Part shown: in pieces, positions 2,883 through 48,000 of the stretch | Layout: each line of letters begins with the position of its first letter | Position numbering within the stretch: position 1 is the stretch's first letter | Origin: a virus | Strand: one strand, 5' to 3' | Virus record (IMG/VR): IMGVR_UViG_3300006736_003672 | Coordinates: 1 to 64,000 of that record | Length of the DNA stretch: 64,000 nt | Notes under the pieces: generated by a model | What the model was told of the DNA's origin: nothing | Databases searched by the model: none | The model's input: the letters and a program-made list of their open reading frames with translations, nothing else | Position numbers and translations under genes: made by a program

Positions 2883-3199
2883 GGGGGTGTCCTGGTTTCG
2901 ACAGAGATTATGATGATATATCTGGCAAGACTGTGTGAATGTCACAGCATAAACATTCAATTTTTAACTGCCAACGATAATGTTGAAGTTGATTACGCCT
3001 TAGCTGCGTAATCTGAGGCTGCTAGTGGCCTTATTCCCCAAAACTAGCAAAAAGTTTCTTATTTCTTTTAAAAAATAAGTGGTGCGCACGTTTAATTGAG
3101 CTACTGAGCAGTTTGCTGGTTCAAAAACCAGATAATCTTGTGAATGACAGTATATTTGATGATTTTTGGACGTGGGTTCGATTCCCACCGCCTCCACCA
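2883..3199 (+). ncRNA. ssrA: tmRNA (SsrA), tag peptide ANDNVEVDYALAA
   Basis: 5' GGGGGTG..TGGTTTCGAC. The 3' end has T-arm GTGGGTTCGATTCCCAC and CGCCTCC-ACCA, giving an acceptor stem with a G3.U alanine determinant. The tag ORF at 2970-3011 follows TAACT and ends ALAA-stop. Confidence 0.96.
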
Positions 3200-3268: not shown

Positions 3269-3595
3269 ATGGTAACGAAACGTAAGAAAGTTGAAAGTAT
3301 AACACAACAAGAGGTTAAAATGGCAATAAAACATAAGAAAATTGATCAAACTGATCAAAATGCTAGTAAATCTTGGAAAAATATAGCATATTTCAACGAA
3401 TATCAAGATGCGGACAAGACAAGAGTTAAACTTTTGTCTGAAAACGATAAAATTCAGGTAAAAGTTAAACGTTGTGGCCCCGCAGGCCTAAAATATGTCG
3501 TAAAACTAAGAAAAAACCCAATTTTTGAGGAAAAAACAGAGAAAAAAGGCAAAAAACAGAGAAAAAAGGACAAAAATAAGAAGGTTCAACCATGA
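3269..3595 (+). CDS. Lysine-rich hypothetical protein
   Basis: ORF with GAGG RBS before ATG 3269; the same AAGAGGTTAAAATGG sequence recurs before an alternative start at 3320. Confidence 0.6.
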   Translation: MVTKRKKVESITQQEVKMAIKHKKIDQTDQNASKSWKNIAYFNEYQDADKTRVKLLSENDKIQVKVKRCGPAGLKYVVKLRKNPIFEEKTEKKGKKQRKKDKNKKVQP

Positions 3596-4206
3596 AAGAC
3601 ATATTTTGGGCTGGAAAAGACAACAAAGAAAAAGAAACTGCCCCAATTGTTGCTACTAGTGATAAAAACAACGTTGTTGAGACAACAAACAACAGAATTT
3701 ACTACTATTCAGAGGTTTCTAGGCAGAAAATCCTTGTTTTGAACAAGAGCTTAAGGAATTTGAATGATAATTTGCTTAATCAAGCGCAATTATTGGGTTT
3801 AGATAACCCTGCTAACATATATTTGCACGTAAACAGCTTTGGAGGCAGTGTTTTTGCGGGTTTATCGGCCGTAGATTACATAACATCATGTGAAGTGCCA
3901 GTTGTTACAGTAGTTGAGGGCTGCGCGGCCTCTGCAGCGACTCTTTTTAGCGTTGTTGGTGCCCACAGACAGATAAGAAGCAACTCTTTTATGCTAATTC
4001 ATCAAATTTCTTCCGGAATGTGGGGGAAATACGAAGAATTAAAGGATAGTATAGATAATTGTGACCTTTTTATGCGAATTATCAAGGATATTTACAACGA
4101 ACATACGAAAATACCTAAGAAAAAGCTTAATGAGATACTAAAACACGACCTATGGTTTGATGCTGAGACATGTCTTGAGTATGGGATTGTGGATGAGATA
4201 ATTTAG
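3592..4206 (+). CDS. clpP: ClpP-family serine protease
   Basis: IYLHVNSFGGSV, CAASAA (catalytic Ser), MLIHQ (His) and HDLWFDAE (Asp), ending YGIVDEII. Confidence 0.9.
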   Translation: MKDIFWAGKDNKEKETAPIVATSDKNNVVETTNNRIYYYSEVSRQKILVLNKSLRNLNDNLLNQAQLLGLDNPANIYLHVNSFGGSVFAGLSAVDYITSCEVPVVTVVEGCAASAATLFSVVGAHRQIRSNSFMLIHQISSGMWGKYEELKDSIDNCDLFMRIIKDIYNEHTKIPKKKLNEILKHDLWFDAETCLEYGIVDEII

Positions 4207-12044: not shown

Positions 12045-12967
12045 AGATTTATATAGAAAAATCTAAAATTAATGGCGCCTGGATATGGATTAACAAAGGT
12101 TATAAATCTGCTTGGAACAACGAAGGTTTCGATGTTAAAGAATATACCAATATAGAAGAAATTAACGAACCAAATGGTTCGTATGATATCATGTCTTCTG
12201 ACTGGCATATAAAGACACAGAATGCAGTAGATGTTCTTGCTAAATCTAGACGTGCTTATTTGTTTGCACAGCCGAATAATTTTCCGGGGCCATGGAACCG
12301 ACACCCAAATTTCACGAGTGTCATATCAGGTGAACACACTGCGCAGATTAATGAATCTGAAAACATATATTTGTGGTCATGGGCAGAAGTTGACAATGAG
12401 TTAGGAAGAGATGTTTTTTCTAAATGGAAAGAGATTAATGTAGTCCCATTGGCGTTTGATTCAGTTAATTATTCTGAAATGTCAGACAAAAGATATGAAT
12501 ATGATGTTTGTTTTATTGGAGGATGGGCAAATAACGGATTTGACGAAAAACGTAAACTTATGTTAGAATATTTTCGCCCTTTTATGAAGTCTGGTTTAAA
12601 GTGTGGAATATTTGTTGGTAAAAACTTAACACACGAACAAGAGAATTTAGTGTTATGTAACAGTAAAGTTTCTATCAATGTACATGACGCGCACCATCAT
12701 CATACGCACTTTGACACTAATGAAAGGACATTCAAGTCGCTAGCATTAACTGGTCTTCTTGTTAGTGATGCCGGCGGCCAAAGGCAAATGAAGAAATATT
12801 TTGCAAATGTTCCCTTGTGTAAAAACCCAGAAGAAATGTTTGACGTTGTAGAAAGATATGTTAATATGCCAGAAGAAGAATTAAAACCAATGAAAGAAAA
12901 AAATAGAAAAGAAATAAAACAAAATCACACATACATTAATCGTGTTAGGCAGATGGCAAAACTATGA
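12041..12967 (+). CDS. CgeB-like glycosyltransferase (Glyco_trans_1_2)
   Basis: YDVCFIGG, SKVSINVH, NERTFKSL and C-terminal HTYINRVRQM. Confidence 0.8.
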   Translation: MKIYIEKSKINGAWIWINKGYKSAWNNEGFDVKEYTNIEEINEPNGSYDIMSSDWHIKTQNAVDVLAKSRRAYLFAQPNNFPGPWNRHPNFTSVISGEHTAQINESENIYLWSWAEVDNELGRDVFSKWKEINVVPLAFDSVNYSEMSDKRYEYDVCFIGGWANNGFDEKRKLMLEYFRPFMKSGLKCGIFVGKNLTHEQENLVLCNSKVSINVHDAHHHHTHFDTNERTFKSLALTGLLVSDAGGQRQMKKYFANVPLCKNPEEMFDVVERYVNMPEEELKPMKEKNRKEIKQNHTYINRVRQMAKL

Positions 12968-13698
12968 AAATTAGTGTAATAATACCGTGTTATAATGCCG
13001 AAAGGTGGATTGAAAAATGTGTTTTATCTGCAATAAATCAAGATTATGAAAATAAAGAAATTATAGTTGTTGACAACGAAAGTACAGATAATAGTTTAAA
13101 TCTTATTAAAAATTTAAAAGAGAAACATAATGATTTAATTGTAAGTTCCGCAGAAAATATTTATAAGTACTCATGGACAGAGCCAGTAGACGAAGGTCTT
13201 AGATTATCTTCTGGCGATTATATAACAATTGTTGGAGCAGACGATTTCTTAGACGCAACATATTTGTCTAATGTTATGAAATGTATAATGCTAGATCCGA
13301 AAAAAATATTAGCATTTCAAAGCCCAATTAGATCTGTCAACGGGGCAGAAGAAACATATGCTGGCGATATAGGTCACAGCTATAAGAGTTTGGATGACTT
13401 TAAAAATCAACTTTTCGAAAAATGCCCCGTTACAACTCCGAGTGTTTTTTATAGTAAAAAAATACATGAAAATGGGTTGTTAACGTGGAACTCTGAAAAA
13501 TATTTAGGAGCGTCAGATTATGATCTATATTTTAGATTAGCAGACAACAATATATTTATATATCCAGCTCCTAAGTGGCTTGGATATTATTATAGATGGC
13601 ACGACAAACAAGCTACTTGGGGGATGCACTCTGAAAAAGTCAGTTATGACAATATTATAAAAAAACACTGGAAAGAAAAATGGGACAAGTCAGAGTAG
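12964..13698 (+). CDS. GT2 glycosyltransferase
   Basis: ISVIIPCYNAE, VVDNESTD, GADD and SDYDLY. Confidence 0.92.
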   Translation: MKISVIIPCYNAERWIEKCVLSAINQDYENKEIIVVDNESTDNSLNLIKNLKEKHNDLIVSSAENIYKYSWTEPVDEGLRLSSGDYITIVGADDFLDATYLSNVMKCIMLDPKKILAFQSPIRSVNGAEETYAGDIGHSYKSLDDFKNQLFEKCPVTTPSVFYSKKIHENGLLTWNSEKYLGASDYDLYFRLADNNIFIYPAPKWLGYYYRWHDKQATWGMHSEKVSYDNIIKKHWKEKWDKSE

Positions 13699-15479
13699 CA
13701 GATTATATAGTTGATAGAATTAGTCAACTAGGAGTAAAAGATATTTTCACCCTTACTGGTGGAGGAGCCATGTTTTTAAATGATGCTGTAGGAAAACATC
13801 CAAATATTCGTGCTGTATTTAACCATCACGAACAAGCGTGTGCCATGGCAGCAGTTGGATATGCTAAATACAATAATGATTTTGCCGTTGTGATGCCTAC
13901 AACGGGATGTGGGTGCACTAATACTATTACTGGATTATTAGAGGCGTGGCAAGACAATGTAAAGTGCTTGTTTATTTCAGGCCAAGTTAATAAATCTCAA
14001 ACAACGTATAATTGTGATTTACCACTCAGGCAGATAGGAGTGCAAGAAGCAAATGTTATTGAGATGGTTAAATCTATAACAAAATATTCTGTCATGATTA
14101 ATGATCCAGAACAAATAGCTTATCACCTTGATAAGGCAATATATTTAGCAGAGTCTGGTAGACCAGGGCCAGTTTGGCTAGACATTCCATTGGATGTACA
14201 GGGTGCCTATATAGACCCTCTAGAGGTTAGAAGGTTCGAACCTGAAGAAGAAAATACTTTCAAAGAAACCCCACTGAAAGAAGAATATGAAATTTTAGAA
14301 GATTACTTCAACGAGGCAAAAAGACCGGTGTTGCTGGTTGGCAACGGCGTAAGGATGGCTTCTGCTATAAATGAGCTTAAGCATTTTGTTGAAAAATTTA
14401 ATATCCCTACGGTCACAACTTTTCTAGGAATAGATTTGTTGCCTAGTCACCACCCATTAAACATAGGGCGCATTGGAATCAAGGGAAACCGAGCCGCAAA
14501 TTTTGCAGTTCAGAATTCTGATTTATTGTTGACAGTTGGAACCAGATTGGGAGTTCCAGTTGTTGGGTATAAGTATGAATTGTTTGCGAGAGAGGCAAAA
14601 ATAGTTGTTGTTGACATTGATCCTGAAGAGCATAAAAAAGATACCATTAAAATAGATTATTTTATTAATGCAGATGCAAAATTATTTTTAGAGGGATGCA
14701 ATTTCGAAAAACAATTTGATCAAACTTGGGCAAACACGTGTTTGGGATGGAAAAACAAGTGGAGAATTTGTCAGCCTGATTGGGAAGAAGACCGAGAAGG
14801 GATAAATCTTTATTATTTTACTGATAAGCTTTCGAAAAACAATAAAAGAGACTCTGTCGTTGTTTCTGATGCTGGTTCTTCCTATTATGTAACGTCACAA
14901 TTTTTAGACATATCACATGAGCAGAGACATATTACATCTGGTGCCCAAGCAGACATGGGCTTTACTATTCCTGCCGCCATAGGAGTCAGCGTAGCAAAAA
15001 ACAATGGTGATGTAATAGGTATTACAGGAGATGGGTCTTTTCAAACAAACATACAAGAACTACAAACAATTGTACAATACCAATTGCCAATCAAATTATT
15101 TGTTTGGAATAATCATGGTTATTTATCAATTAGAACCACACAAAAGAAATTTTTTAAAAACGATTTTGTAGGAGTTGATAATGAAAGTGGAATTTCTTTT
15201 CCAAATACAGAAAAAATTGCCAATGCTTATGGAATCAAATATTTCAATATTAAAAAATCAAAAGACATAGATAAAATTTTAAAAGAAGTCATTGATTACA
15301 GTGGTCCAGTTATATGTGAGGTTATGTGTCAGAAGTGGCAAGAAATAGTGCCCACTTTAGTTTCAACTAAGACAAAAGATGGTCGTGTTGTATCTAGGCC
15401 TTTTGAAGACATGTATCCTATTTTATCAAGAGAAGAGTTTTATGAGAATATGATTGTTAAACCGATTGAATATGATTAA
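13680..15479 (+). CDS. ThDP-dependent acetolactate-synthase-like carboligase (YerE-like, branched-chain sugar biosynthesis)
   Basis: HHEQACAMAA, SGRPGPVWLDIP and the ThDP motif GDGSFQ...NNHGY; located inside an NDP-sugar cluster. Confidence 0.85.
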   Translation: MGQVRVADYIVDRISQLGVKDIFTLTGGGAMFLNDAVGKHPNIRAVFNHHEQACAMAAVGYAKYNNDFAVVMPTTGCGCTNTITGLLEAWQDNVKCLFISGQVNKSQTTYNCDLPLRQIGVQEANVIEMVKSITKYSVMINDPEQIAYHLDKAIYLAESGRPGPVWLDIPLDVQGAYIDPLEVRRFEPEEENTFKETPLKEEYEILEDYFNEAKRPVLLVGNGVRMASAINELKHFVEKFNIPTVTTFLGIDLLPSHHPLNIGRIGIKGNRAANFAVQNSDLLLTVGTRLGVPVVGYKYELFAREAKIVVVDIDPEEHKKDTIKIDYFINADAKLFLEGCNFEKQFDQTWANTCLGWKNKWRICQPDWEEDREGINLYYFTDKLSKNNKRDSVVVSDAGSSYYVTSQFLDISHEQRHITSGAQADMGFTIPAAIGVSVAKNNGDVIGITGDGSFQTNIQELQTIVQYQLPIKLFVWNNHGYLSIRTTQKKFFKNDFVGVDNESGISFPNTEKIANAYGIKYFNIKKSKDIDKILKEVIDYSGPVICEVMCQKWQEIVPTLVSTKTKDGRVVSRPFEDMYPILSREEFYENMIVKPIEYD

Positions 15480-15487
15480 AAAAAATC

Positions 15488-15516
15488 TTAATAAAAAAAT
15501 AATTTTGTGTTATTAT
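15488..15516 (+). promoter_or_regulatory. Putative extended -10 sigma70 promoter upstream of panB
   Basis: TTAATA, 17 bp spacer, TGtTATTAT in the intergenic gap; GGAGG RBS at 15539-15543. The region is AT-rich, so a chance match is possible. Confidence 0.4.
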
Positions 15517-15548
15517 TAAGATTGAACAACCACAACTCGGAGGAAAAA

Positions 15549-16472
15549 ATGGCTGCTAATGATAAAAATAAAGTTACGATTTTAAAATTAAGAAAACAAA
15601 AAAGGGAAGGGCAAAAAACTGTTTTGGCCACATCGTATGATTACCCGCAAGCGGTAATTACAGATGGCGCAGGAGTTGATGCTATTCTTGTGGGAGATTC
15701 TTTGGGAATGACAACTTTGGGTCACAAAACCACAATTCCTGTAACAATGGATGATATGGTTTTACACTGTGAAGCTGTTTCGAGAGGAGCAAAAAATGCT
15801 TTTCTTATTGGAGATATGCCCTATATGTCTTATCAAGTGTCTAACGAAGAAGCAGTTTACAACGCAGGAAGATTTATAAGGTCTGGCATGGATTGTGTTA
15901 AAGTAGAAGGAGCAATGACAGACAGAATTAAAGCTATTGCGGAGTCTGGGATATTGGTTATGAGCCATCTTGGCCTCACTCCTCATACGAGAGCTAAGCT
16001 TGGTGGTTATAGAGTGCAAGGTAAAACTGCTGAGCAAGCAGATATTATTTTAGAACAAGCTCTTAAATTACAAGAAGCTGGTTGCTCGTTCTTATTATTA
16101 GAAGCGATGCCGAAGGAACCAGCAGAACTAATTGCTAAGGAATTGTCAATACCAGTGTATGGAATCGGCGCCGGCGACAGAGTCGACGGACAGCTTGTTA
16201 TTTTTCATGATTTAATGGGCCTGTTTTGGGAATTTAAATCCAAGTTTGTTAAAAGGTATTGCGAAGCTGGCCAAATTATGCAAAAGGCAATGATAGAATA
16301 CGCGGATGAAGTTAGAAATGGTGTCTTTCCGTCCGAAGAGAATTTTTATGAAATTAAAGATGAAGAACTTGAAAAACTTCTTTCTGATAGCAAATGGAAA
16401 TATGAAACAGATCAAGGATTCCCTACTAATCACTGTTTAACGCCAAACACGGTTACAAGAAAAAATAAATAG
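15549..16472 (+). CDS. panB: 3-methyl-2-oxobutanoate hydroxymethyltransferase (PanB family)
   Basis: TSYDYP, ILVGDSLGM, GDMPYMSY, VKVEG, HLGLTP, GYRVQGK, YGIGAG and DGQLVIFHDLMG. Confidence 0.92.
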   Translation: MAANDKNKVTILKLRKQKREGQKTVLATSYDYPQAVITDGAGVDAILVGDSLGMTTLGHKTTIPVTMDDMVLHCEAVSRGAKNAFLIGDMPYMSYQVSNEEAVYNAGRFIRSGMDCVKVEGAMTDRIKAIAESGILVMSHLGLTPHTRAKLGGYRVQGKTAEQADIILEQALKLQEAGCSFLLLEAMPKEPAELIAKELSIPVYGIGAGDRVDGQLVIFHDLMGLFWEFKSKFVKRYCEAGQIMQKAMIEYADEVRNGVFPSEENFYEIKDEELEKLLSDSKWKYETDQGFPTNHCLTPNTVTRKNK

Positions 16473-17324
16473 GTGAAGATATTAGTAACAGGGTGTAGTG
16501 GCTTTATTAGCCGCGAATTCGTTTCATATTTTAAAAACATAAATCATGCAATATATCTAACAAATAGAAATAATTTAAATGTTCTTAATGAGCAAGAAGT
16601 TGATAATTTCTTTAAAGATAATAAAATTGATGTAGTTGTTCATTCTGCCGCCAAAGGAGGTCGAAGAACATGTAAAGAATCTTATGAAGATTTTTTATGC
16701 AATATGAGAATGTATGATAACCTAAGCAAACATGCAGATGAGTTTAAGATGATGTTTCATTTTGGATCTGGCGCGGAGTTTGATAGACGAACGGACATAG
16801 ATGATGTTAAAGAAGAAGAAATATATGATTCCTTTCCTGTTGATTTTTATGGTTTCTCAAAAAAGATGATCGCGAAAAAAATTAAGAAACATAGTGACAA
16901 TATTATAAATTTGAGATTGTTTGGATGTTTTGGAATTCAGGAAAATGAAGATCGAATGATCAAGTCCAATATAAAAAGATATGTGAACAATGAACCTATC
17001 ATTATACACAAAAATAAAAAGATGGATTTTTTCTTCGCGGAAGATCTGTGTAGAGTAATAGAGTTTTATTTGCAAAATTGGAACCCGGGCACACCGCGAG
17101 ATGTTAATATGGTGTATCCCCAAAAAGAAACTTTAAAGGACATAGCCAACATGATAAATTTTCTATCAGAGAACAAGAGTAAAATTATTGTAGAACAGGA
17201 TGGCCTTGATAACTCATACTGTGGAAACGGAGAAAAGCTAAATAATTTAAATATTGACCTAGTTGGGCTTAGTTATGGACTGCGTAAGTTGTATAGTTCC
17301 TTGTTTAACAAAAAGAGATTCTAG
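16473..17324 (+). CDS. NAD-dependent epimerase/reductase (extended SDR)
   Basis: ILVTGCSGFI, FGSGAEF and YGFSK. Confidence 0.88.
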   Translation: MKILVTGCSGFISREFVSYFKNINHAIYLTNRNNLNVLNEQEVDNFFKDNKIDVVVHSAAKGGRRTCKESYEDFLCNMRMYDNLSKHADEFKMMFHFGSGAEFDRRTDIDDVKEEEIYDSFPVDFYGFSKKMIAKKIKKHSDNIINLRLFGCFGIQENEDRMIKSNIKRYVNNEPIIIHKNKKMDFFFAEDLCRVIEFYLQNWNPGTPRDVNMVYPQKETLKDIANMINFLSENKSKIIVEQDGLDNSYCGNGEKLNNLNIDLVGLSYGLRKLYSSLFNKKRF

Positions 17325-17333
17325 TGTTATGAT
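17305..17333 (+). promoter_or_regulatory. Sigma70-type promoter with extended -10
   Basis: TTAACA (17305-17310), 17 bp spacer, TG at 17325-17326, TATGAT (17328-17333); same architecture as the promoter at 2419. Confidence 0.5.
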
Positions 17334-17341
17334 TGTGGAAC

Positions 17342-18304
17342 ATGCATGATGTTGTAATATTTATTATGAGTTCTGGACCAAATGTTGGTTTGAGCGGTAA
17401 GGCAAATTTGACTGAAACTGTGTATTCCATTTCTAAAAACATTGGAGATGTCGATTACAAATATTATATTGTGACAGATTCTCGTTCACAAGAAAAATTT
17501 GCTCATGAATTGTTTTCTCACGAATCTCTCAAACATGTAGTAAAACCAGAATCTTTATTAGAGGTGAAATATTCAGAAGATTCATGGGCAAGGGAATTTA
17601 ATTTGTTTTTTGATAACCACAAAGACAATACTAAATATGTTTTATTTTCACATGATGATTTGATAGTTAAGACTCCTGATTTTTTTACAAAGACTCTCGA
17701 AGAAATTAAAGATGCTAAAGATCCAATTGGGTGGATATCTTTTACAAATGATAGATATTATAAGTTCGATAAAAATCCAGTAGCTAATTCTTTTAAGGAT
17801 CCTTTTTGCCTAGACAGACACAACGATCCTAGAATTTACGAATGTCATAATTTTGAGCCTGATGAGAAAGTTACAGAACAAAATTATGATAAACTAGATT
17901 TTCCGAATAGAGCAGTTAAATGTCATGGGCCTTATGCTCATTTAAACTTGGTAAGCTCCGAAGCTCTTGAGAAAATAGGACCATGTGTTGAGTGGACAGA
18001 TTATACAATTTTAATTGATAATGACTGGGCTCTAGAATCTCTTAAATCAGGGTTCTTCAATGTTTGGATACCAGATGTTTTATATACACACCCAAATCCA
18101 AAATACCCGAGAACGCCTGGCACTGATTTGAGATTTGAAAGAGAGGCACATGAGAAATTTTATAAAAAATGGGGGTTCCCATTGTGGGAAATGCCCCTTA
18201 GTGACGATGTTATTGTTTACATTAGGCAGAAATTTAAAGATACCAATATACCATTGTCATCTTATAGGAATTCTTATGATTGGGATTATTTAAAAGATGA
18301 ATGA
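17342..18304 (+). CDS. GT-A (GT2-like) glycosyltransferase
   Basis: YVLFSHDDL (DxD-like), IDNDWAL, VLYTH and FYKKWG. Confidence 0.65.
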   Translation: MHDVVIFIMSSGPNVGLSGKANLTETVYSISKNIGDVDYKYYIVTDSRSQEKFAHELFSHESLKHVVKPESLLEVKYSEDSWAREFNLFFDNHKDNTKYVLFSHDDLIVKTPDFFTKTLEEIKDAKDPIGWISFTNDRYYKFDKNPVANSFKDPFCLDRHNDPRIYECHNFEPDEKVTEQNYDKLDFPNRAVKCHGPYAHLNLVSSEALEKIGPCVEWTDYTILIDNDWALESLKSGFFNVWIPDVLYTHPNPKYPRTPGTDLRFEREAHEKFYKKWGFPLWEMPLSDDVIVYIRQKFKDTNIPLSSYRNSYDWDYLKDE

Positions 18305-19646
18305 GTTAGATCAGATACTAAAGCCACTTTCCGAATATATAGAAAATAAAAAAAGAAGAGAAACGGTGTGGCACCCGGGAAAAGATTGGGTTTCATATTC
18401 AGGAGATGTGTTTTCAAAAGACGAATATCTTGCTGCAATTAAGTCTTTGATTGATGGGTGGTTGGTGTTTGGAAAAAAGAGTCGACAATTTGAAATAGAA
18501 TTCGCGCCACACTTAGGAATGGATAAGGGAATATTAACAAATTCTGGATCTTCTGCCAATTTGTTAATGGTGTCCGCGCTCAAATCTAAAAATCTTTATA
18601 ATTTTCCTGTGGGTACAAAAATTATTACTCCAATTGTGTGTTTTCCAACAACGGTAAATCCAATACTTCAGTGTGGCTTTGTTCCTGTTTTTGTTGACTC
18701 CACGTTGCCTGATTTAAATTTAGATCTGGGTCAGGTTGAAAAAATATTAGAAGAAGATACAAATAGAGAGATTAAGGCTATAATGTTCGCTCACGCCCTC
18801 GGAAATCCCCCAAATATGGATAAAGTTATGGAACTGGTACAAAGGTATGATCTGATTCTATTAGAAGACGCATGCGATGCTTTAGGATCAACTTACGATG
18901 GAAAGAAACTGGGCTCTTTTGGAGATATGTCATCTTGTTCTTTTTACCCTGCACATCACATGACGCTTGGTGAAGGAGGTTTCGTAGCCACAAATAAGGC
19001 AAGGAATCATAAAGTTTTATTAAGTTTACGTGACTGGGGAAGAGCTTGTTTTTGCAATACTAAAAAGCCTGGAGATGTGACGGGAGAAACTGCATGCGGT
19101 AATAGATTTAGAAAGTGGCTTCCCAAAAATAAAGATTTAATCTACGATCATCGATATGTGTATAATGAGATAGGTTTTAATTTGAGGCCATTAGAATTGC
19201 AAGCTGCGATTGGTTTAGAACAACTTAAGAAAGTAGAAAGTTTCCACTCTTCTCGTATTAAAAACTTTAATTATCTTTTAGATGTTTTCAAACCATACAA
19301 AAAATACTTTCACCTTCCAAGACCGACAGAAAAATCGAACCCTTCATGGTTTGCTTTTCTGTTAACTATCAGAGATAGCGCTTCTTTTAGCAGAGTTGAC
19401 TTTATAAAACATTTGGAAGATGCTAAAATACAAACTAGAAATTATTTTTCAGGCAACCTGTTATATCATCCTGCTTATTCGGAACTGGCAGAACAATATG
19501 AAGATTTAAAGGAAATGTTTCCTGTGGCGCATAAGGCTGCAACTAATTCTTTTTTCCTAGGAACATATCCTGGACTAACAAAGGAAAAATTAAGATATAT
19601 ACGTAAAGTTGTAAATGGTTTTTTTAAAGGGAGAATTACAAAATGA
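18297..19646 (+). CDS. rfbH: NDP-4-keto-6-deoxyglucose 3-dehydrase (E1/DdhC/RfbH)
   Basis: NSGSSANL, LEDACDALGS, SFYPAHHMTLGEGG (His in place of the PLP Lys) and DWGRACFC...C Fe-S motif. Confidence 0.9.
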   Translation: MNELDQILKPLSEYIENKKRRETVWHPGKDWVSYSGDVFSKDEYLAAIKSLIDGWLVFGKKSRQFEIEFAPHLGMDKGILTNSGSSANLLMVSALKSKNLYNFPVGTKIITPIVCFPTTVNPILQCGFVPVFVDSTLPDLNLDLGQVEKILEEDTNREIKAIMFAHALGNPPNMDKVMELVQRYDLILLEDACDALGSTYDGKKLGSFGDMSSCSFYPAHHMTLGEGGFVATNKARNHKVLLSLRDWGRACFCNTKKPGDVTGETACGNRFRKWLPKNKDLIYDHRYVYNEIGFNLRPLELQAAIGLEQLKKVESFHSSRIKNFNYLLDVFKPYKKYFHLPRPTEKSNPSWFAFLLTIRDSASFSRVDFIKHLEDAKIQTRNYFSGNLLYHPAYSELAEQYEDLKEMFPVAHKAATNSFFLGTYPGLTKEKLRYIRKVVNGFFKGRITK

Positions 19647-20590
19647 AAGTTGTTTATATAACAGGTTGTTTAGGGTTTATGGGTTCTTATGTAACACGCG
19701 CATGTTTAAAGAAAGGGTGGCATGTAAGAGGGGTAGATAAGATAACATACGCATCGAATGAAAATTTATTACAAGAGTTTAAAAAATATGAAAATTTTGT
19801 TTTTGAAAAAAAGGATATTAATGATTTAGATTGGTTATATGATTGCGATTATATTATAAATACGGCAGCCGAAACTCATGTTGATAATTCAATTGTTAAG
19901 AGTGGGGAGTTTGTTCATTCCAATATAAACGGAGTGCATAATTTGTTAGAATTAATTAAAACAAAAAAATATTTTAGAATGCCTATTTTTCTTCATTTTA
20001 GTACGGATGAAGTATATGGAGATATAATTGATGGAGATCACAAAGAAACTGACTTGTTAAAACCAAGTAATCCATATTCGGCCACAAAAGCTGCCGCCGA
20101 TCAACTAGTTTTGGCTTGGAGCAGGACTTATGATGTACCATATGTCATTGTTAGGCCGACTAATAATTATGGCGTAGGCCAATACGTAGAAAAGTTAATA
20201 CCAAAAGCTTGTAAATTTTTATCATTGGGAAAGAAAATTCCTTTGCACGACGGAGGAACGCCTGTTAGAATTTGGCTACATGCTAAAGATACTGCCTCTG
20301 CAATAATGAGAATCATAGAGTCAGGAAAAGTTAATGAAATTTATAATATAGCCGGCGGCTATGAACAAAAAAACCTTGACACTGTAAAGAAAATCTTAGA
20401 TTTATATTTTGAAGGGCAAAATATAGATTATAGTGATTATATAGATTTTGATTTTAAAAGAGTGGGTCAAGATTTAAGGTATTCTGTTGATGATTCTAAA
20501 TTGCAAAATTTAGGCTGGAAAACTGATTGTAATTTCGATCTAGAATTGCCAGAGATTGTAAAATACTATAAAAATAATTTTATTTGGTAA
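19643..20590 (+). CDS. rfbB: dTDP-glucose 4,6-dehydratase-like
   Basis: GCLGFMG, AAETHVDNS, STDEVYG, PYSATKAAAD, RPTNNYG and EKLIP. Confidence 0.88.
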   Translation: MKVVYITGCLGFMGSYVTRACLKKGWHVRGVDKITYASNENLLQEFKKYENFVFEKKDINDLDWLYDCDYIINTAAETHVDNSIVKSGEFVHSNINGVHNLLELIKTKKYFRMPIFLHFSTDEVYGDIIDGDHKETDLLKPSNPYSATKAAADQLVLAWSRTYDVPYVIVRPTNNYGVGQYVEKLIPKACKFLSLGKKIPLHDGGTPVRIWLHAKDTASAIMRIIESGKVNEIYNIAGGYEQKNLDTVKKILDLYFEGQNIDYSDYIDFDFKRVGQDLRYSVDDSKLQNLGWKTDCNFDLELPEIVKYYKNNFIW

Positions 20591-39037: not shown

Positions 39038-42000
39038 ATGCCAAAAGTACTAATAGAAAATCTTGAGCTTGAGTCACTAATAGAGCCGCCTTTTACTAGA
39101 GATGAAGACACGTATGAGGTCGTCGTGTCAATTTGGGGAGTTCCCGGCACTGGCGACTTGGACACCCAATACAAAATAGGGTCGAGTGCTGATAATTGGG
39201 TGTTCGAGACTTCGGACGCAATAGGAGATTGCACCGCCACGGCAAATCAGCAACAGCTCATCGAATTCGCAGACGAGCACACCGATTGTGTTGTCGATAA
39301 ACTCATGCTCCATGTACAAAATCGTGGAGTGTATGTTATATTAAAAAAGCTTCTTGGTACCGGTATGGACAAGTTTGCCGCCGAAACCCCGGATGACGAA
39401 AACTACTCAATGGATGAGAACGGTTATCAAGTGCACGAAGGCTTCGGTACGAAAACCCGCGATCTTATAGCTATGAAAAATTACATGACTCACCTGCTAG
39501 AGGTAGTCGAAAACGATATCATAATTGGCACGTTTGTGGGCTATGAAGGCGATCCTGATGCCGATCCTCCCATCCCTCCGGTAGAAATTTGGAGATCCCC
39601 TCGTCCTTCAGATCCTCATCCACGCCGAGTAGTCGTCGGGCTTAGTATTGGCAAGGAAAATATAGAGAAGTTAAGAGGTCTAAATCCCGCCGAAGCAGTA
39701 GGGGAGATCTCAGAATTCGATGAAAAAGCCGGCGCCCCGGTGGTGACTCGCTCGGAGCCTAAATTTCGTCAAACGTTTCAGAATGTTTTTGAATTTAGAG
39801 ACTTAATCGACAAAGTGTCTAAAGGATTAAAAAACTATCATGGCAAGTTATCAGATTCATATTTTGCTTATCATGTTCCTCCGCCCGGCTTACCTCAGGG
39901 TCTTTTGGGTCCGATTTATGACTCGGACGATGTAGAGGATTGGCCTGAGCTTGATTTTAAACAACAGGCTGCATATTTGAAGGAGGCTGGTGACAAGATT
40001 ATAGATTTTTTGAAAAGTTCTGGACATAATATGGGCGCACCTTTTGAAATTGGCTTTCGTAATTATCATAAAATAGATGAGGAAGGACTGACTACAGCTG
40101 AGTTAAGAGACGAAGTAAAAACAGGAACGGTTCCCGGGATAACGTATGTTGGATACCCGATAGAGTACGAAAAAGTGCGTTTATATACTTTATATGTCTT
40201 GAAAACTCCAAAGCCGCCCCCGGCCAGCGCGCCGGCACTTGATTATGGTTTAAATAAACCCCCGGTCCCATGGCCAACTTTATATCCCGACACAAGTCCA
40301 GACGGTGATCCTAGAATATTGTATGGGGATCCTGCTGCCTATGAAGTTGATTCACCATTTGACAAAGAACCGTTTACGTTTGGTACTGTTAGATGGTTTT
40401 TGGCCAACTTGAGAGATATTGGTTATAAACACATCGGCGGCAAACCAACTCCAGAAGAACTCAAGGCGCAAACAGAAGCAGCTGCAGTTGTTGCAACGTC
40501 AGAAGCAATGGAAAATCCTTGTGCCATGTCTGCTCCTGCTATGGCTAGTAAAGAATCCATGCCGGTCGACGACTTTATTGAATTGTATGTTTACCCAAAC
40601 CCCGAGACAATTTTTAAAACCAGTTCTATTTTGGATTTAGCTAAAAAATTAGCTGGATGGCACTCTGGAGAAGAGTCTGCTGAAAATAAAGCACTTGAAC
40701 GTAAGTTAACCAAAGAAGACGTATTACAATCTGTAGTTAATAATAGCCATGTTAACGCTTCCGATTATGTTGGAGACTTAGTATATAAAAACTTACCAGT
40801 ATCTCCGAATAAAATTCGATCAATTCATGATGCATATGCATATATTTTAAGAAGACTTGATATCCCAACTATAATAGTAAAACTATTAGAATGTCTTGGG
40901 TTGAGAGTAAGTTTAGACGACTTAATTGAGTGGATTTGTGATGACATTATTAAAGCTGTTGACGAAAAAACCGATGGAGGTATTACAAAACTTGTTGAAT
41001 TTTTGGAGAGTGGAGAATTTCAGATCCCGGGCGAATTCCTGGCACAGGATCCTCCCATTCAAGTGACCGACATTATAGGAGTTATACATGCCCACTCGGA
41101 CATTGATACTGGTTCTGCAGCGGTAGATCAGATGCTCAACACTTGGGATCGCAACCAAAAATTATTTATTTGCGCTGCAATTGCTGCCGGCCCATTCGCC
41201 GCAGTAGCCGGCTTGATTTGGCTAATTAACTATCTTCTTACTAGAGACGGGTCGTTGGACAAGCAGCCGGGAAAGAAGAAGTGTGATATTGAATTTTCAT
41301 TTCCAGATGAGTGGCCAATCTTAGATGCTCTTTGGGATTGGATATTAAGAGAAGCTTTAAAAAGACTTGAAGAAGAAGCTATGAGATTACTAGAGGAAGA
41401 AATTATCAAGCCTCTAAATCTGCTATTACAACAACTGTTAGACTTTTGCGATAAAGAAGAAGAAAGTTTTGGAGAAATTTCGTCCGAAGATTTAGACCCA
41501 GATCTTGCTTCAAAAGCTGCTCCGCTATTTGTAGGGCCAAAATCAAACAAATTTTTAAAAAAGTTGTTGTCTGCTTTAACTCCTAGTGAACTATGCGGGC
41601 TTCTAAGAGGGACCCTTTTATTTGAGGCCCCTGAAACCAAAAAAATTACAAGTTTTATTTACGAGTTTGCTTTAGACGAATACAATGGAGCACCTGCAGG
41701 AACAGTAGAACATGGAGGAAAACCCGGGCCTCTTGGTAACGGAAAAAATATACTTCAATTTTTTAAAAATCTTGGCAAGAAAGTAAATATGAGCGTGTGC
41801 GATGAACGAGAATTGCCAGAAAAGCCTATATCAGACTTTTGTGATGATCTTGGTGTAGATTATGAAAGTAATTTAAGAACCGCTTTAACTAACCAGGGAC
41901 TCTCTGATGAACAAATTGAAGGTCAAGTTATAGCAAAGCGAAACGCCAAGAAAGAAATAGTTAGCTCCGCTATACAAAATCTACTTAGAGGTAGCAATTT

Positions 42001-45000
42001 AACTGAAAAAGTAAAGGAAGACACAAAAAAAACAGTACAAAAGATTATAGTTGAAGCACTGCAAGGGACGAGCGCCGGCGCTATTAAGCACGTCATTAAT
42101 AGTGCGGCAATTCCGATGACAGCTGATATGGCAAACTTTTCTTTAGCTTTTTCAAATACTTCATTTGTAAAAAGACTTATTGCGGGAGTTGAGCTTGTAA
42201 AGACAGAGCCAATTTTTGATTGGCTTCCCACTGCGGAACTCAGTCAGTTCCATCGTTTTAGATTTAATATTTTTGATGGTAAATATTTAGAAAAAAAAGC
42301 TTTACAGGCCGAATTCGGATCGTCTGCTCCTGATGTTAATATGTGTGATGAGATCACTCGCCATATTGCTCTTATGGAAGATCTCAAACAGGAGATGGCA
42401 ATGGATCTTCATGAAGCCCGATGGAAATATTGGGATGGAGATCTTTATGAGGACCTTGAAACAGGCCCGGGCCCTGCTTTTATCACTCTCGCCGACGCAT
42501 CGATCGAGAGTTTCGCTGAATACAATAAAGCCCGAGCTGAAGAGGTTGGAGGAGACCCGACAGGAAAAGATTTGTCTGCATATGATTTATATCAATTGGG
42601 CTATGATCAATTCTCCGGGATGAGCAGATTCCACGCTAAGGAAGTACAAAGAAAAGTAGTGGAAGCATCTTGGTTTAATTTGCCACATAAAAATCTTATT
42701 AAAAGATACGAGAGGTTAACACCTTTAGAGTTTGATGACTTAGCAGTAATTGCATTTAGGTATTATAGTAGACATGTGCATGATTACACCAACACCTCGG
42801 CCGGCGATGAAGCTGAACTCAAGTTATTCTCCGAGGCGAATCATTATGGATCATTTTATTACGATCCGTTGACAGAAGAGGGTGGTCATTATGCCTGGGG
42901 CCCTCTTCTCAGTTCGGTTAATTTTAGAATGGGCTCCTCCCGGCCTTGGGCCGAATCTCCGCCAGGTCCTGATCAATATCCTTCAAAAAAACCTGATTGG
43001 GTGGATGTAGGATTTTACGATTTGGTGAGTAGGCTAGATCGTGCTTCTGGGACTGATCAAAACAATTATAAACTTTTTACGAACGAACCTCGTGTCACGG
43101 CAGTCATTCACCCCCACACTAAGGAGGTGAGAACTCATCTCGTTGCTACAGAAGACTTTCTTCAACGTGCTGGAAATTGGACACCACGGAATCCAATTTG
43201 GTCAGGTACTGATGTTAAAACAGCGCTAGTTCAGCTTCTTTTATTTGTTTGGGATTTCGGCGCTGACGAGTTGTCAGATTTTCCATATGAAGCCGGCGTC
43301 GGAGCATCTATTAATACCCATCAAGGAACCGAAGATGGTTGGAAAGCAAATTTTTGGGGAGGACACTTATTAAGAGCTTTGAAGTATTATCAACATGGCT
43401 TGAACACAGTTCCCTCTTTTGCTATAGATTTTGACAAATCCAGCTTTGCGACGGTGGAGAAATCCGTCTACACCCACCCAGTAGGCGAGCCTTACCCCAC
43501 GTATGAGAAAGTCGTCGAGGTCGAGAAGAGCCTGAAAGAAGCAGATTTAGTTGATTCCGGGGATACAATAACTTTAATAGAGGCTGTCTGGGGACAGGGC
43601 GAGTGCGGCGAGGTCTACCGTTACTATGATTATGCAGGATGGACCCCGGCCTGCCCATCCCAAGATCCTGAAACGTTTGAAGTGATTCCGTCTAAAACAA
43701 TGGTTGTGAACAAAGAAGCGTGGCTAGCGGGAAATGCTGAGTCTAAACTATTGAGAGCAGATCCCATTGATGATTCTGCAGAATTAATGGTAATCGATCC
43801 CGAGACCGGCCTTCGTGCACCATTTATTCCCGCTATGAAACCAACTCCTTTAAGTCTATTTTGCGCCCCGGGCTTAAAGAGAAGACCTCCGCCTCCGGAT
43901 CCAGAAAAAACTTGGGAAGCTGTTTATACATTAGTTCCTCCTGGCAAAGGCAAAGACAAAGAAGGAAAATTAAAATTATTGGATGAAATCTCGAGGTGTA
44001 TAACAGATGACTACACAATTTCAGTTAAGGAGCCCGGGTACGGCGTCGCCATCTTCGGCACGGCGCCTGCAGTGATATTAGACTATCGTAGTAAAGAAAT
44101 ATTAAAATTATGGGATGACATAGGCGATGACACTACAAACAATGAGCCTGGTTTTTCTATGAATAAAACAATCGATGTACTTGCCGCTTCTATGGGTACT
44201 GGACTTGGATGGAATACATACGATGTAGATGAACCAATAGCTCCACAATTTCTCGAAAAAATGATTCTGAGACACATTGATGATAAGTTTCCACATTTTG
44301 ATGATCAAATCATCCAAGATATGGTCGCCACCGGCGTCGGGGACTTTAATTCAGACTTCTCGATACACTATGCTCTTACTAAGGTGCTCAGAACCCACAA
44401 ACAAGGAAGACTAAACCTATATGGAACTATTTTTCGGGACTGTATAAGAAACATGGCTAACTTATCATTGAAATATGGAGTCGCTCAAAAAGCATCCGGA
44501 GACTATGATAGTTTGCAAGAAAAAATAATTGCTGCTGTTGGAGTACTGATGAATGATCTTGCTAGATCTAATGCTCTGACTGATTTGACTGATTTAGCAA
44601 CCGATGCTGCAAACAAACACACAGACGCAATGGAAAATGCTGATTTGGCGGATATAAATTCTATTCCTTCAATTGGAAAAACATTAATATCTTATCCACC
44701 AAATCCCCCTTTTCAGCTGGATCATAGTTACGATCCGCCGATGAAGGTATTTGAAAAGGTTGATTGGAAGAAGGGGCCTGCTTTATTTAGGCTATTAATT
44801 AGAGTAGTAATTATGGAAAAAGTGTTTAAGACGCTCATGACATCTTCCACTTATTCAACTTCTGGTATTTTTTCTAGCATTCCAATGAAAATGATAATTG
44901 CGAGTTCCATCCGATCCCAGCTCTCGACCAACATTCGGGATAAAATTAAAATATTGGCATCGGATCTGGGAATTATTGGGGAAGGCGCGTCATTTTCTTC

Positions 45001-48000
45001 ATGTGTCTTGCCCATAATAGAAGAAGAAATTGAAGCAACATCTGGCAAAGTCAGCGACCTGTTGGGTAACACAATACCGCAATTGACAGAGTTCTTAAAA
45101 GACAATGTCTATGATCTGGCTACGTCTCATCCAGAGTGTAATATATATTCTACGTGGACGGATATGGATCGTTACGTTCCCACGCAAACCGAAGCTGCCC
45201 TCGTCGCGCATCACGGCGAGCAGGATCCCGAAGGCTACGGAGGAGGACTCCAACTCCCGGACGAGTCTGCAGATCCCACGGCAGGTGAGAAGTATTGGGA
45301 CGCGGTTATCGCTTTGAATGAAAACAAATTAGGCCTTAACGAGATTGTCGAACACCAAGAAGGTCCCAAGATAGCCAGCGATAATATATTTAGTTTGACA
45401 AATAATTTTCATTCAACATTAAGATTTATTGATGAAGATGGAATCCAAAAATACTCTGGCTTTATTTTAGAAAAATATATAAAAGTTAAGTTCAAAAATA
45501 ATTTAATAAAAAAAATAGAAGATAAAGATCAAGGAGAACAGTTTTTAGAGGCATGGCAAGCTCTTCCAATTGAATGGCGAGGCAGCGCGCAAGATAAAAT
45601 GAAGCCAGATGGATTCAAATATGCAACTTGTTTAAGCCCCGGAGAGTTTACATCTGCGATTGGTGACTTTTTTACTTATTTTGGCAACATGACTCCTGAA
45701 GGTTGGGGTCAATCAGTGTTTGATTGGGCTCAACTTTTTGATCCTTATCAATTTAGTGAAAAGCTACAAGAACTCTCTGACAAAGTGTATGAGGAAGGAA
45801 AGCAAAACCCAGGAGACAAACACGGGCACGACAGCGTTCTGAATATTGATCGAAGCGAGAGAGATTTATGGTCTAACGGGCCCGCCGGCCAGGCTATCTT
45901 CAGTGCAAATCCCCTGACCGCAGGCGCTAGCGCCCAATACAGTGATCATAATGTGGTTTCTAGATCTGCCGAAGTGCAGAGACATATTGCTCTCATGGAA
46001 AGGATTCTTGCATACCAGCTGAAAAATAACAGCGGCGGCCCCTCCGAAGGGTATGTTCATCCAGGTTCTGATCCCAGTTCGTACTACGAAGGCGATGAGG
46101 ATAGTGCTAGACCTTTTAATTCTCCAGCCGGCTCGAGGATCCCATTCGGATCCACCGGTGTTAATGCCGGCTGGAACGACAACACTGGATTGGGAATAGA
46201 AGGTACCGCTGAGAACATACAATCTTTATGGCATAGCCTTACTAATCAAGATAAACGTGATTTAGAGACAATTGCTTTTAGATTTTATTCTAGATATTAT
46301 TTTGGAGACTTGAGATCATTTTACTTCGATCCTCATGATTCTGTATATCCCAAACACGCCGGCGGCTCTAACGTTGGACTTAAAGATTTTGTGGGAAGAA
46401 AAGGGTTTCTTGATTCGACTATGGATTTTCGTACTGGTCTCCGACGACCAGGAATGATGTTCATGAACGCCGTTAACCAGAAAGAGTGCACCGAGGAACC
46501 ACCTTTCTGGAAAAAAGCCGCCGTCGCCATCGGTGGTGCCCTCCTCTCCGGCCTTGTTTCTCTCATTCCCGGCGGGCTTATTATTGATCTAGTTGGATCA
46601 TTCGCGGGACAGGGATTCAAGGCCGCCGGAGAATACTACCTCCACAAAGACGACAAATGCTGGTATGTCTCGGGCAGGTACGTTGTACCTCAACCAAACG
46701 ATCCAACGTTGTGTCTTCATATGCCAACGTCGCTTATGGATATGATAAAAATGATACAAATGCAAACTTATGAAACTGACAGCGGTTGGTGGAGCGAAAA
46801 TGTTGGTAGTGCCGCCGCCGTCCATTACACCAATGGCGCAGATGGACCTGGCACATCGCAAGATGATCATTTAGACGCAAAAATAAGTTATAGGACACCC
46901 CTTATACAAAGAGGCGCCAGAACGTCACAGCCGTCATATAGGATTCCCGATATCGTGGAGGAACCTGGCCACGCGGGCTACGGCGCGCGACTGGGCATGA
47001 GTTTGCAAGACAGAGACCCTGATGAAAATGAGATCTTGGGCGCCATGGCCAAGCTTCTTCTTTTTCCATATGAAATTGGAGATTTTCAAACAAATTCATA
47101 CAGCGATGAAGGATTAGATGAGTTTTGTGGTGATGATGACCAATGTGACGAAACAGTTATCAGAAGGTATTCAATCCCCGGCTCTCAGCAATGGGGAGGT
47201 GCACTCGAAGACGACTTTGACGTTGATTTTTCCTCTGGTGGTCTTTATACATCTGCAAAGATAGGAGAAGAGTGGACCGCGATATTTGGCGGGCACTTAT
47301 ACTGGGCCTTGCAATATTACAAAAAGGGATTATGGGAAACACACGCTGAATTTATAAGTGGCGAGACTGGAACAGTTATAACGTCACCCTCACCTTTGGG
47401 TATTTTTACTAAAGACTCTGAAGGAACCAGCAATGTTATAAAAATTAAGGGATCAATACCTGAAGATTTGAAATCTATAAGTGATATGGATTTGACAGGA
47501 GATGATGGATTTGCTGATGTGTCTTATGGTTTACGTTTGTCGTATCTTGTTCCTCCTAATGTTGCGTCCGAAGATCCAAGAGATTATCCACTTTCACCGG
47601 GAAAAGACCAGCTACAGACCAGCGATGAGCGGTCCGCGACATTCTGGCCAGCCGTCGAAAAAGCGACCACCCCGATGTTTTCGAGTAAACCATTTTTCCA
47701 TGACACGGGAGAATACCGCACCAAATCCACGGAGTTGATATCTCACGTAATGGACGGGTGGGATTCGATGAAACGTGAAAAATCGATTTTTATAAGCGAA
47801 GTTCCTGAGGCTGTCCCATCAATTAATTTATCCGATCAGGACGAACGCCCACAATCAGCTGGCTTCGACCCCTTCGGCAACCTCCTCGTCGAGCACTCGC
47901 GGTCGAAATACAATATTGGCAAACCAATTGTTATATTACCAATAATGGAATATGAAGATCCTGTAGGTCCCGGGAAAAAATGGAATGATATCATATATAC

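Follow-up and report, generated by a model that had tools for sequence, protein, structure and literature searches.

What does a marine phage do with panB in the middle of a run of genes for sugar nucleotides? The question is raised by the first 64 kb of a 75.9-kb IMG/VR virus record (IMGVR_UViG_3300006736_003672, rated 42% complete by CheckV), hereafter the window, in which six genes at 13680–20590 form a compact operon on the + strand. A YerE/JanthE-like enzyme dependent on thiamine diphosphate (ThDP) is followed by a PanB-family hydroxymethyltransferase, a short-chain dehydrogenase/reductase (SDR), a GT-A-like protein, an E1-type 3-dehydrase and an RmlB-like 4,6-dehydratase. These genes abut or overlap by 4–19 nucleotides (nt), except that 8 nt separate the SDR from the GT-A-like gene and 69 nt, counted from ATG, precede PanB. 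The original prediction, made from the letters alone, had named the same six genes in the same order; Pfam and NCBIfam agree with it, the glycosyltransferase standing as a structural lead. Our analysis suggests that PanB probably takes the place of the aldolase in the scheme proposed for acyl-branched sugars, where it would supply a 4-hydroxy-2-oxo acid donor to the ThDP enzyme for a C4-acyl-branched 3,6-dideoxyhexose of the yersiniose or erwiniose kind. The six genes are given below, 'PanB2' being a name coined here for a cellular PanB paralogue of about 315 amino acids (aa) and NDP denoting nucleoside diphosphate.

13680–15479, + strand: YerE/JanthE-like ThDP carboligase, predicted sugar C-branching enzyme (PF02776, PF00205, PF02775)
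15549–16472, + strand: PanB-family hydroxymethyltransferase of the viral/'PanB2' clade (PF02548, TIGR00222)
16473–17324, + strand: extended SDR, candidate YerF/ErwF-like branch-ketone reductase (PF01370, 86 bits)
17333–18304, + strand: putative GT-A-fold (GT2-like) glycosyltransferase, a structural lead (ESM Atlas features 0.98 to GT2-like clusters; structural TM 0.64–0.72)
18297–19646, + strand: E1-type pyridoxamine phosphate/[2Fe-2S] NDP-4-keto-6-deoxyhexose 3-dehydrase, RfbH (NF011936, 462 bits, cut-off 423)
19643–20590, + strand: RmlB-like NDP-glucose 4,6-dehydratase (TIGR01181, 301 bits, under its cut-off of 365)

Linkage and ancestry of the phage PanB

A scan of IMG/VR yielded 57 viral loci whose PanB is 72–92% identical to that of the window, and a scan with the distant representative P0122 added four relatives (59–61% identical) with the order PanB-ThDP. 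A YerE-like ThDP gene lies directly beside PanB in all 61 loci, the aligned parts being no more than 102 nt apart. The order is ThDP-PanB in 41 loci (24 with a ThDP enzyme of type A, 17 of type B) and PanB-ThDP in 20, type A being 53–68% identical to the enzyme of the window (24 loci) and type B 32–39% (37 loci). In 27 loci, the pair is accompanied by an E1-type dehydrase as its sugar-modifying partner, and in 20 by an ordinary DegT aminotransferase-like gene; of the 41 ThDP-PanB loci, 35 have an SDR homologue immediately after PanB. The viral locus L222, with a PanB just 45% identical to that of the window, reads RfbH (E1-like), 4,6-dehydratase, ThDP enzyme (57%), PanB, SDR. The adjacency of PanB and ThDP genes is not due to chance. 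As the partner stays constant while gene order, ThDP lineage and sugar scaffold vary, the two enzymes are apparently coupled directly in function, and PanB itself would not recognise the sugar. The two genes behave as a mobile cassette that is joined to differing sugar scaffolds. A reverse scan, aimed at viral ThDP genes whether or not PanB accompanies them, returned 11 loci, most of them already known, the pattern method being limiting.

Fusions of the two enzymes were considered and rejected: the 905–937-aa open reading frames (ORFs) in phage loci L010 and L015–L019 are separate genes with one stop between them, and the 924-aa ORF in L161 crosses a run of masked N. Some loci have further neighbours. 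Directly upstream of PanB, a B12-binding radical SAM enzyme is encoded in one phage locus (L002:6457–8001) and in one Elusimicrobia PanB2 locus (L158:4928–6745), which suggests C-methylation in the same pathway. The ORF just before PanB in L050 and L056 resembles, by eye, a transketolase/E1-beta-like pyrimidine-binding module, with a type B ThDP gene after PanB. Phage-type PanB (70–77% identical to that of the window) was also found on contigs binned to Prochlorococcus and Marinimicrobia single-cell genomes and to a Pelagibacter metagenome-assembled genome (L139–L142); these are probably phage contigs and hence point to no clear host.

The PanB of the window scores above the cut-offs of PF02548 (328 bits, cut-off 28.7), TIGR00222 (282, cut-off 207.55) and NF001452 (318, cut-off 272). 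Clustering at 50% reduced the phage PanB group to one representative, 59% identical to the query, and left the others at 53% or less, apart from two short fragments at 74–82%. A cellular contig (L059) with the order ThDP-PanB-SDR-DegT encodes a PanB 48% identical to that of the window, and a scan with this protein revealed 56 more loci in Elusimicrobia, Acidobacteriota, Bacteroidota, Spirochaetota, bacteria of the candidate phyla radiation (CPR) and archaea. When the neighbouring ORFs were clustered, the family seen most often beside PanB2 was the YerE-like ThDP enzyme, present in 17 of the 56 loci and always at position +1 or −1, within clusters of SDR, GT2, DegT and methyltransferase genes. 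A canonical PanB matching the whole Pfam model is also present in seven of ten PanB2 genomes checked, and panC was not seen in four of the five genomes with ThDP-linked PanB2, whose assemblies may be incomplete. In eight cellular loci with no adjacent ThDP gene (L170:1367–2635 and seven others), PanB2 adjoins a protein of about 420 aa lacking a Pfam match, which may be an alternative partner of PanB2.

A phylogeny and a gene-neighbourhood survey of PanB had been named as checks on the original prediction. The tree (FastTree, LG+gamma, 206 rows) united the 51 viral rows with P0122 and P0125 (support 0.86); together with five representatives (0.987), this group forms the sister clade of PanB2 (0.965), and canonical PanBs fall outside the joint clade (0.956), so that no grouping with housekeeping enzymes was found. 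The survey in turn showed that PanB homologues do co-occur with YerE-like genes, in the proportions given above (61/61 viral, 17/56 PanB2). Judged by its sequence, the phage PanB is not a housekeeping copy and belongs to a separate clade together with the PanB2 paralogue. A search of the isolated-phage collection revealed no member of the viral clade, the best match to the PanB of the window being a 48% identical protein in the Microcystis phage MaAM05 record (L152, MW495066.1). At 256–271 kb, this record carries panB, panC one gene downstream, and then sufB, sufC and sufD, a stretch that looks like cellular housekeeping DNA.

Enzymes of the block and the proposed route

The best solved relative of the ThDP enzyme of the window is JanthE (8rph), which matches over the full length with 428 bits; plant acetohydroxyacid synthase (AHAS) scores 268 bits and PpYerE (5ahk) 242. 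The YerE-like enzymes JanthE and PpYerE outscore AHAS for ThDP types A and B, with the exception of PpYerE for this type A enzyme. The acetolactate synthase equivalog models of NCBIfam all remain far under their cut-offs (e.g. 376 vs 738), and the cofactor motif is the canonical GDG...NN (GDGSFQ...NN in translation). The 80 closest cellular homologues, 39–57% identical, are mostly encoded beside RfbH-like and 4,6-dehydratase-like genes. By these comparisons, the enzyme is classified as a YerE-like carboligase, not as an acetolactate synthase. JanthE itself is a YerE-like, ketone-accepting carboligase of wide donor range, including a 4-hydroxy-2-oxo acid and also pyruvate, whose native substrates are not known (PMC12188165, PMC12247030).

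In cellular loci, the YerE-like ThDP gene often adjoins a gene of the NeuB family, 23–32% identical to the NeuB of the window (L063, L064, L066, L070–L072, L075, L079, L081–L083, L088, L090, L106 and L110). As products of NeuB-type enzymes are 3-deoxy-2-ulosonic acids and hence 4-hydroxy-2-oxo acids, NeuB may be a third type of donor supplier, for long-branched sugars.

The open frame of PanB begins with GTG at 15507 (15507–16472); the true start is most likely the ATG at 15549, which is preceded by a GGAGG ribosome-binding site and agrees with the 307-aa gene call P0002. The protein is about 45% identical to E. coli PanB (1m3u) and keeps D45, S46, D84, K112, E114, H136 and E181, whose roles we take to be those described for the E. 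coli enzyme. These seven metal-binding and catalytic residues are 100% conserved in 51 viral and 51 PanB2 rows. With the Mg ligands, S46, K112 and E181 kept, the substrate would be a free 2-oxo acid, and the chemistry should still consist of enolisation of this acid and transfer of a C1 unit. The viral and PanB2 clades share derived residues at positions 212 (L; canonical mostly V, I in E. coli), 214 (I; V), 200 (Y; canonical I) and 183 (M; canonical V), while I202 is unchanged. Mutations of I202 and I212 of the E. coli ketopantoate hydroxymethyltransferase (KPHMT) alter its 2-oxo-acid scope (PMC7611260). As the derived residues are bulkier, they hint at a substrate smaller than 2-oxoisovalerate. 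Q142H, G135S, F87Y and P227S are found in the viral clade only. Viral PanBs also have a conserved C-terminal tail of about 40 aa (window 16350–16472, same region in L002–L058), ending around KWKYETDQGFPTNHS-TPNT, which the solved canonical enzymes 1m3u, 1o66 and 1oy0 lack.

The E1 dehydrase matches wild-type Yersinia E1 (3bcx) with 334 bits and retains, within SFYPAHH, the His that stands in for the Schiff-base Lys. Four Cys align with Cys of 3bcx (D-A-C-D, C-x-C and later C positions), which we take to be the ligands of the [2Fe-2S] cluster. The 4,6-dehydratase reaches 64 bits with the CDP-glucose dehydratase model and its best solved relatives are all dTDP-glucose 4,6-dehydratases; a dTDP- or UDP-linked sugar nucleotide is more likely than a CDP-linked one. 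The SDR matches solved structures weakly, and its homologues adjoin the ThDP gene in cellular loci, e.g. L060, L062, L065 and L073. For the product of 17333–18304, which had originally been called a glycosyltransferase, no Pfam, NCBIfam or PHROG match was obtained; ESM Atlas features and structure are GT-A-like, so that the call stands as a lead to a possible GT-A/GT2-like enzyme. Its gene had a tblastn match among the other loci only in L001, the window's own stretch.

Neither E3, Fer2, NAD_binding_1 nor a nucleotidyltransferase was found in the 75.9-kb record, and five related large viral records, two of them 90–100% complete, yielded no panC, Fer2 or nucleotidyltransferase. The lack of an E3 reductase noted in the original prediction therefore extends to the whole record and to two near-complete relatives. 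Likewise in keeping with that prediction, a Pfam scan of all window ORFs of at least 100 aa outside the six-gene block detected no PanC, PanD, PanE, IlvC or IlvD. With neither E3 nor a nucleotidyltransferase encoded, the phage must take NDP-glucose and the electrons for E1 from its host. SpnQ provides a precedent for an E1 homologue that uses general cellular reductases.

A scheme for such gene sets has been proposed by Steitz et al. in 2022 as a 'unifying scheme': an aldolase encoded beside the YerE-like enzyme is the proposed maker of a 4-hydroxy-2-oxo acid, 4-hydroxy-2-oxopentanoate in the case of ErwE, and a neighbouring reductase (ErwF) is proposed to finish the branch (PMC9306805). ErwE rejects pyruvate and accepts 4-hydroxy-2-oxobutanoate, -pentanoate and -hexanoate (PMC9306805). 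The Pfam scan revealed no BphI-like or HpcH/citrate-lyase-like aldolase in the glycan genes of the phage, and a PanB-family enzyme occupies that slot; the reductase beside the ThDP enzyme is present as the SDR at 16473–17324. Since the products of PanB are 4-hydroxy-2-oxo acids, the donor class of ErwE, a PanB that replaces the aldolase is the most economical reading.

The genes and their linkage are as described above; the chemistry that we infer from them would run as follows. Host NDP-glucose, probably dTDP- or UDP-linked, would be converted into NDP-4-keto-6-deoxyglucose by the RmlB-like dehydratase, and its C3 hydroxyl would be removed by the E1 dehydrase with electrons from a host ferredoxin or flavodoxin system. 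PanB would hydroxymethylate a host 2-oxo acid with 5,10-methylene-tetrahydrofolate, giving a 4-hydroxy-2-oxo acid; from 2-oxoisovalerate this would be ketopantoate, from 2-oxobutanoate or pyruvate an analogue with fewer substituents. The ThDP enzyme would decarboxylate this product and attach the acyl anion equivalent to the sugar at its C4 ketone, whereupon the SDR would reduce the branch ketone to yield an NDP-3,6-dideoxy-4-C-(1,3-dihydroxypropyl-type) hexose, possibly with one or two methyls on the branch. Neighbouring glycosyltransferases would finally put the sugar on an acceptor, which may be a virion protein or a host envelope glycan. The claim of the original prediction that PanB was recruited to a pathway for a branched 3,6-dideoxysugar of the yersiniose kind, and does not act as a pantothenate gene, is thus favoured by the invariant ThDP linkage, the paralogue clade, the lack of panC and the aldolase scheme, its chemical part staying conditional.

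Several points weigh against this route. We know of no glycan with the predicted branch, no search for such a glycan having been made. In 20 phage loci, the partner of the cassette is an ordinary DegT-type aminotransferase, not E1, and the acceptor sugar differs there. About two thirds of the cellular PanB2 genes are not adjacent to a ThDP gene and lie in mixed contexts, and the PanB2 clade may have further roles. The PanB tree is a FastTree phylogeny with local supports and an arbitrary root. If the donor were ketopantoate, its quaternary C3 beside the keto group would be bulky for a ThDP enzyme; no YerE-like enzyme is known to take a donor with a quaternary C3, and the acids tried on ErwE, MyGE and JanthE were unbranched or gamma-branched (PMC9306805, PMC12188165, PMC12247030).

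The 20 loci with a DegT-type aminotransferase in place of E1 would also fit another product, namely a free or carrier-bound hydroxy-acyl unit (hydroxypivaloyl- or pantoyl-like) that PanB and the ThDP enzyme make for ester or amide linkage to an (amino)sugar instead of a C-branch. N-acylated amino-deoxysugars are common in bacterial glycans. We nevertheless consider such a unit unlikely, as neither the block of the window nor the scanned ORFs of L002 and L030 showed an acyl-CoA ligase, acyl carrier protein or N-acyltransferase. Furthermore, enzymes of the YerE kind are carboligases, both ThDP types have JanthE and PpYerE as their nearest relatives, and the partner in the window is a true E1, which would give the 3,6-dideoxy-4-keto acceptor of YerE-type enzymes.

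It is also improbable that PanB acts after branching, on a sugar to which the ThDP enzyme has added acetyl from pyruvate, as YerE does, so that PanB would hydroxymethylate the sugar-bound methyl ketone before its reduction by the SDR. The gene order ThDP-PanB-SDR fits these steps, JanthE as the best solved relative takes pyruvate, and chelation of the metal by the alpha-hydroxy ketone of the branch is conceivable. However, the order is reversed in the 20 PanB-ThDP loci, and S46, K112, D45 and D84, the residues for carboxylate and Mg, do not vary within the viral and PanB2 clades, which argues for a free 2-oxo acid. Moreover, one conserved PanB (72–92% identity) serves two scaffolds, which is easier if it never meets the sugar, and the erwiniose aldolase acts ahead of the ThDP step (PMC9306805). 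The original prediction had offered both mechanisms; the kept Mg and carboxylate residues would favour donor making over hydroxymethylation of the branch.

That PanB is an ordinary auxiliary metabolic gene (AMG) raising host pantothenate and coenzyme A (CoA), with an incidental location among glycan genes, is very hard to believe: its score above the TIGR00222 equivalog cut-off, its complete set of catalytic residues and a marine virome study that takes viral 'pantoate transferase', the most abundant vitamin/cofactor AMG there, as boosting host CoA (PMC8940887) stand against a YerE-like gene adjacent in 61 of 61 loci despite rearrangements, five related large phage records in which panC was not found, a clade whose cellular paralogue occurs in genomes alongside a canonical PanB, and housekeeping contexts that differ, with panC near panB in the MaAM05 record and in E. 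coli.

If PanB is half of a sugar-branching cassette, the CoA interpretation of PMC8940887 would be wrong for this large gene family. One can speculate further, tentatively and with less confidence than for the donor-making PanB of the window, that the viral and PanB2 proteins together make up a branch of the PanB family with a new function. Its substrate might be, instead of 2-oxoisovalerate, e.g. pyruvate or 2-oxobutanoate and its product a dedicated donor for hydroxymethyl-bearing C-branched sugars, chemically undescribed and borne by abundant marine phages and CPR bacteria, so that the 'PanB AMG' of ocean viromes would be a glycan gene. For biocatalysis, such clusters would offer natural KPHMT/YerE pairs for tertiary alcohols.

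Glycan island and source phage

The six-gene block is part of a larger island, and the gene immediately upstream of the block is kept in related phage loci with type A ThDP genes.

8669–31539, + strand: glycan-biosynthesis island of about 23 kb, every gene on the + strand and tightly packed (Pfam scans)
12964–13698, + strand: GT2 glycosyltransferase (PF00535, 85 bits), sharing 19 nt with the start of the ThDP gene

According to Pfam, the island begins with two GT4 genes, a GT1_2-like gene and the GT2 gene, which lead up to the branched-sugar block. The block is followed by genes for a Maf-like protein, NeuB, a CMP-transferase, a class III aminotransferase, a methyltransferase, a VOC protein and a TIM-barrel protein, and the rest comprises an SDR, a cupin, two sulfotransferases, fcl and gmd.

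The window also codes for PhoH, ClpP, a tubulin-like protein and baseplate wedge proteins that resemble gp25 and gp6; a tmRNA and two giant ORFs are present as well. A baseplate protein is about 32% identical to its counterparts in Flavobacterium phage immuto and Microcystis phage Mel-JY01, and a DNA-level search with the six-gene block against isolated phages gave no useful match. The source is an uncultured marine myovirus without a close isolate. A widespread group of marine myoviruses devotes about 23 kb to glycan synthesis. The giant ORFs at 39038–48331 (3097 aa) and 52682–63556 (3624 aa) flank the baseplate genes, the second containing Laminin_G_3 (concanavalin-like) domains; both are candidate fibre or decoration proteins and possible targets of glycosylation. 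About 400 nt separate the tmRNA (2883–3199, tag peptide ANDNVEVDYALAA) from the ClpP homologue downstream of it at 3592–4206, and neither smpB nor clpX was seen among the scanned ORFs of the window.

Relation to known systems

Compared with the canonical PanBs of E. coli (1M3U) and Mycobacterium tuberculosis (1OY0), the phage enzyme has the same fold family, an identity of about 45% and all metal-binding and catalytic residues, but it belongs to a separate clade with derived residues at or close to the positions that govern 2-oxo-acid scope and with the tail of about 40 aa, and it is never linked to panC. In housekeeping contexts, E. coli panB abuts panC and the panB of MaAM05 has panC one gene downstream. 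JanthE of Janthinobacterium sp. HH01 (PDB 8RPH), the closest solved relative of the phage ThDP enzyme, differs from it by an unusual CDG motif for ThDP in place of the canonical GDG.

The yersiniose A system of Yersinia pseudotuberculosis (E1/E3, YerE, YerF) resembles the phage block in its E1 with His for Lys and aligned Cys, its YerE-like ThDP enzyme and its reductase. In contrast to the phage block, however, YerE uses pyruvate without an additional donor-forming enzyme, and Yersinia has CDP-sugars and an E3, while the phage ThDP enzyme is nearer to JanthE than to PpYerE.

The closest parallel is provided by the clusters of the unifying scheme, i.e. those for erwiniose (ErwI/ErwJ, ErwE and ErwF), caryophyllose (MMAR_2331/2332) and gastriose (MygI, MyGE and MygF) (PMC9306805). 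They likewise combine a ThDP enzyme, a donor maker and a reductase beside genes for a 3,6-dideoxy-4-keto sugar and glycosyltransferases. Their donor maker is a pyruvate aldolase of the BphI or HpcH/citrate-lyase kind, whereas the phage has a folate-dependent PanB, which would contribute a C1 unit instead of an aldehyde. The phage dehydratase is RmlB-like rather than of the CDP-glucose type, E3 and nucleotidyltransferase are missing, and the cluster is carried by a phage. A PanB-type donor enzyme is mentioned neither in PMC9306805 nor in a 2025 review of ThDP enzymes that form tertiary alcohols, and our literature searches retrieved no paper that ties PanB to sugar branching or O-antigen clusters. 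If the proposed route is true, the logic of aldolase, ThDP enzyme and reductase would extend to a folate-dependent C1 donor, and a new type of sugar is predicted. The phage block would then represent a variant of the known acyl-branched-sugar scheme, with a PanB-family enzyme in the aldolase slot as its new element.

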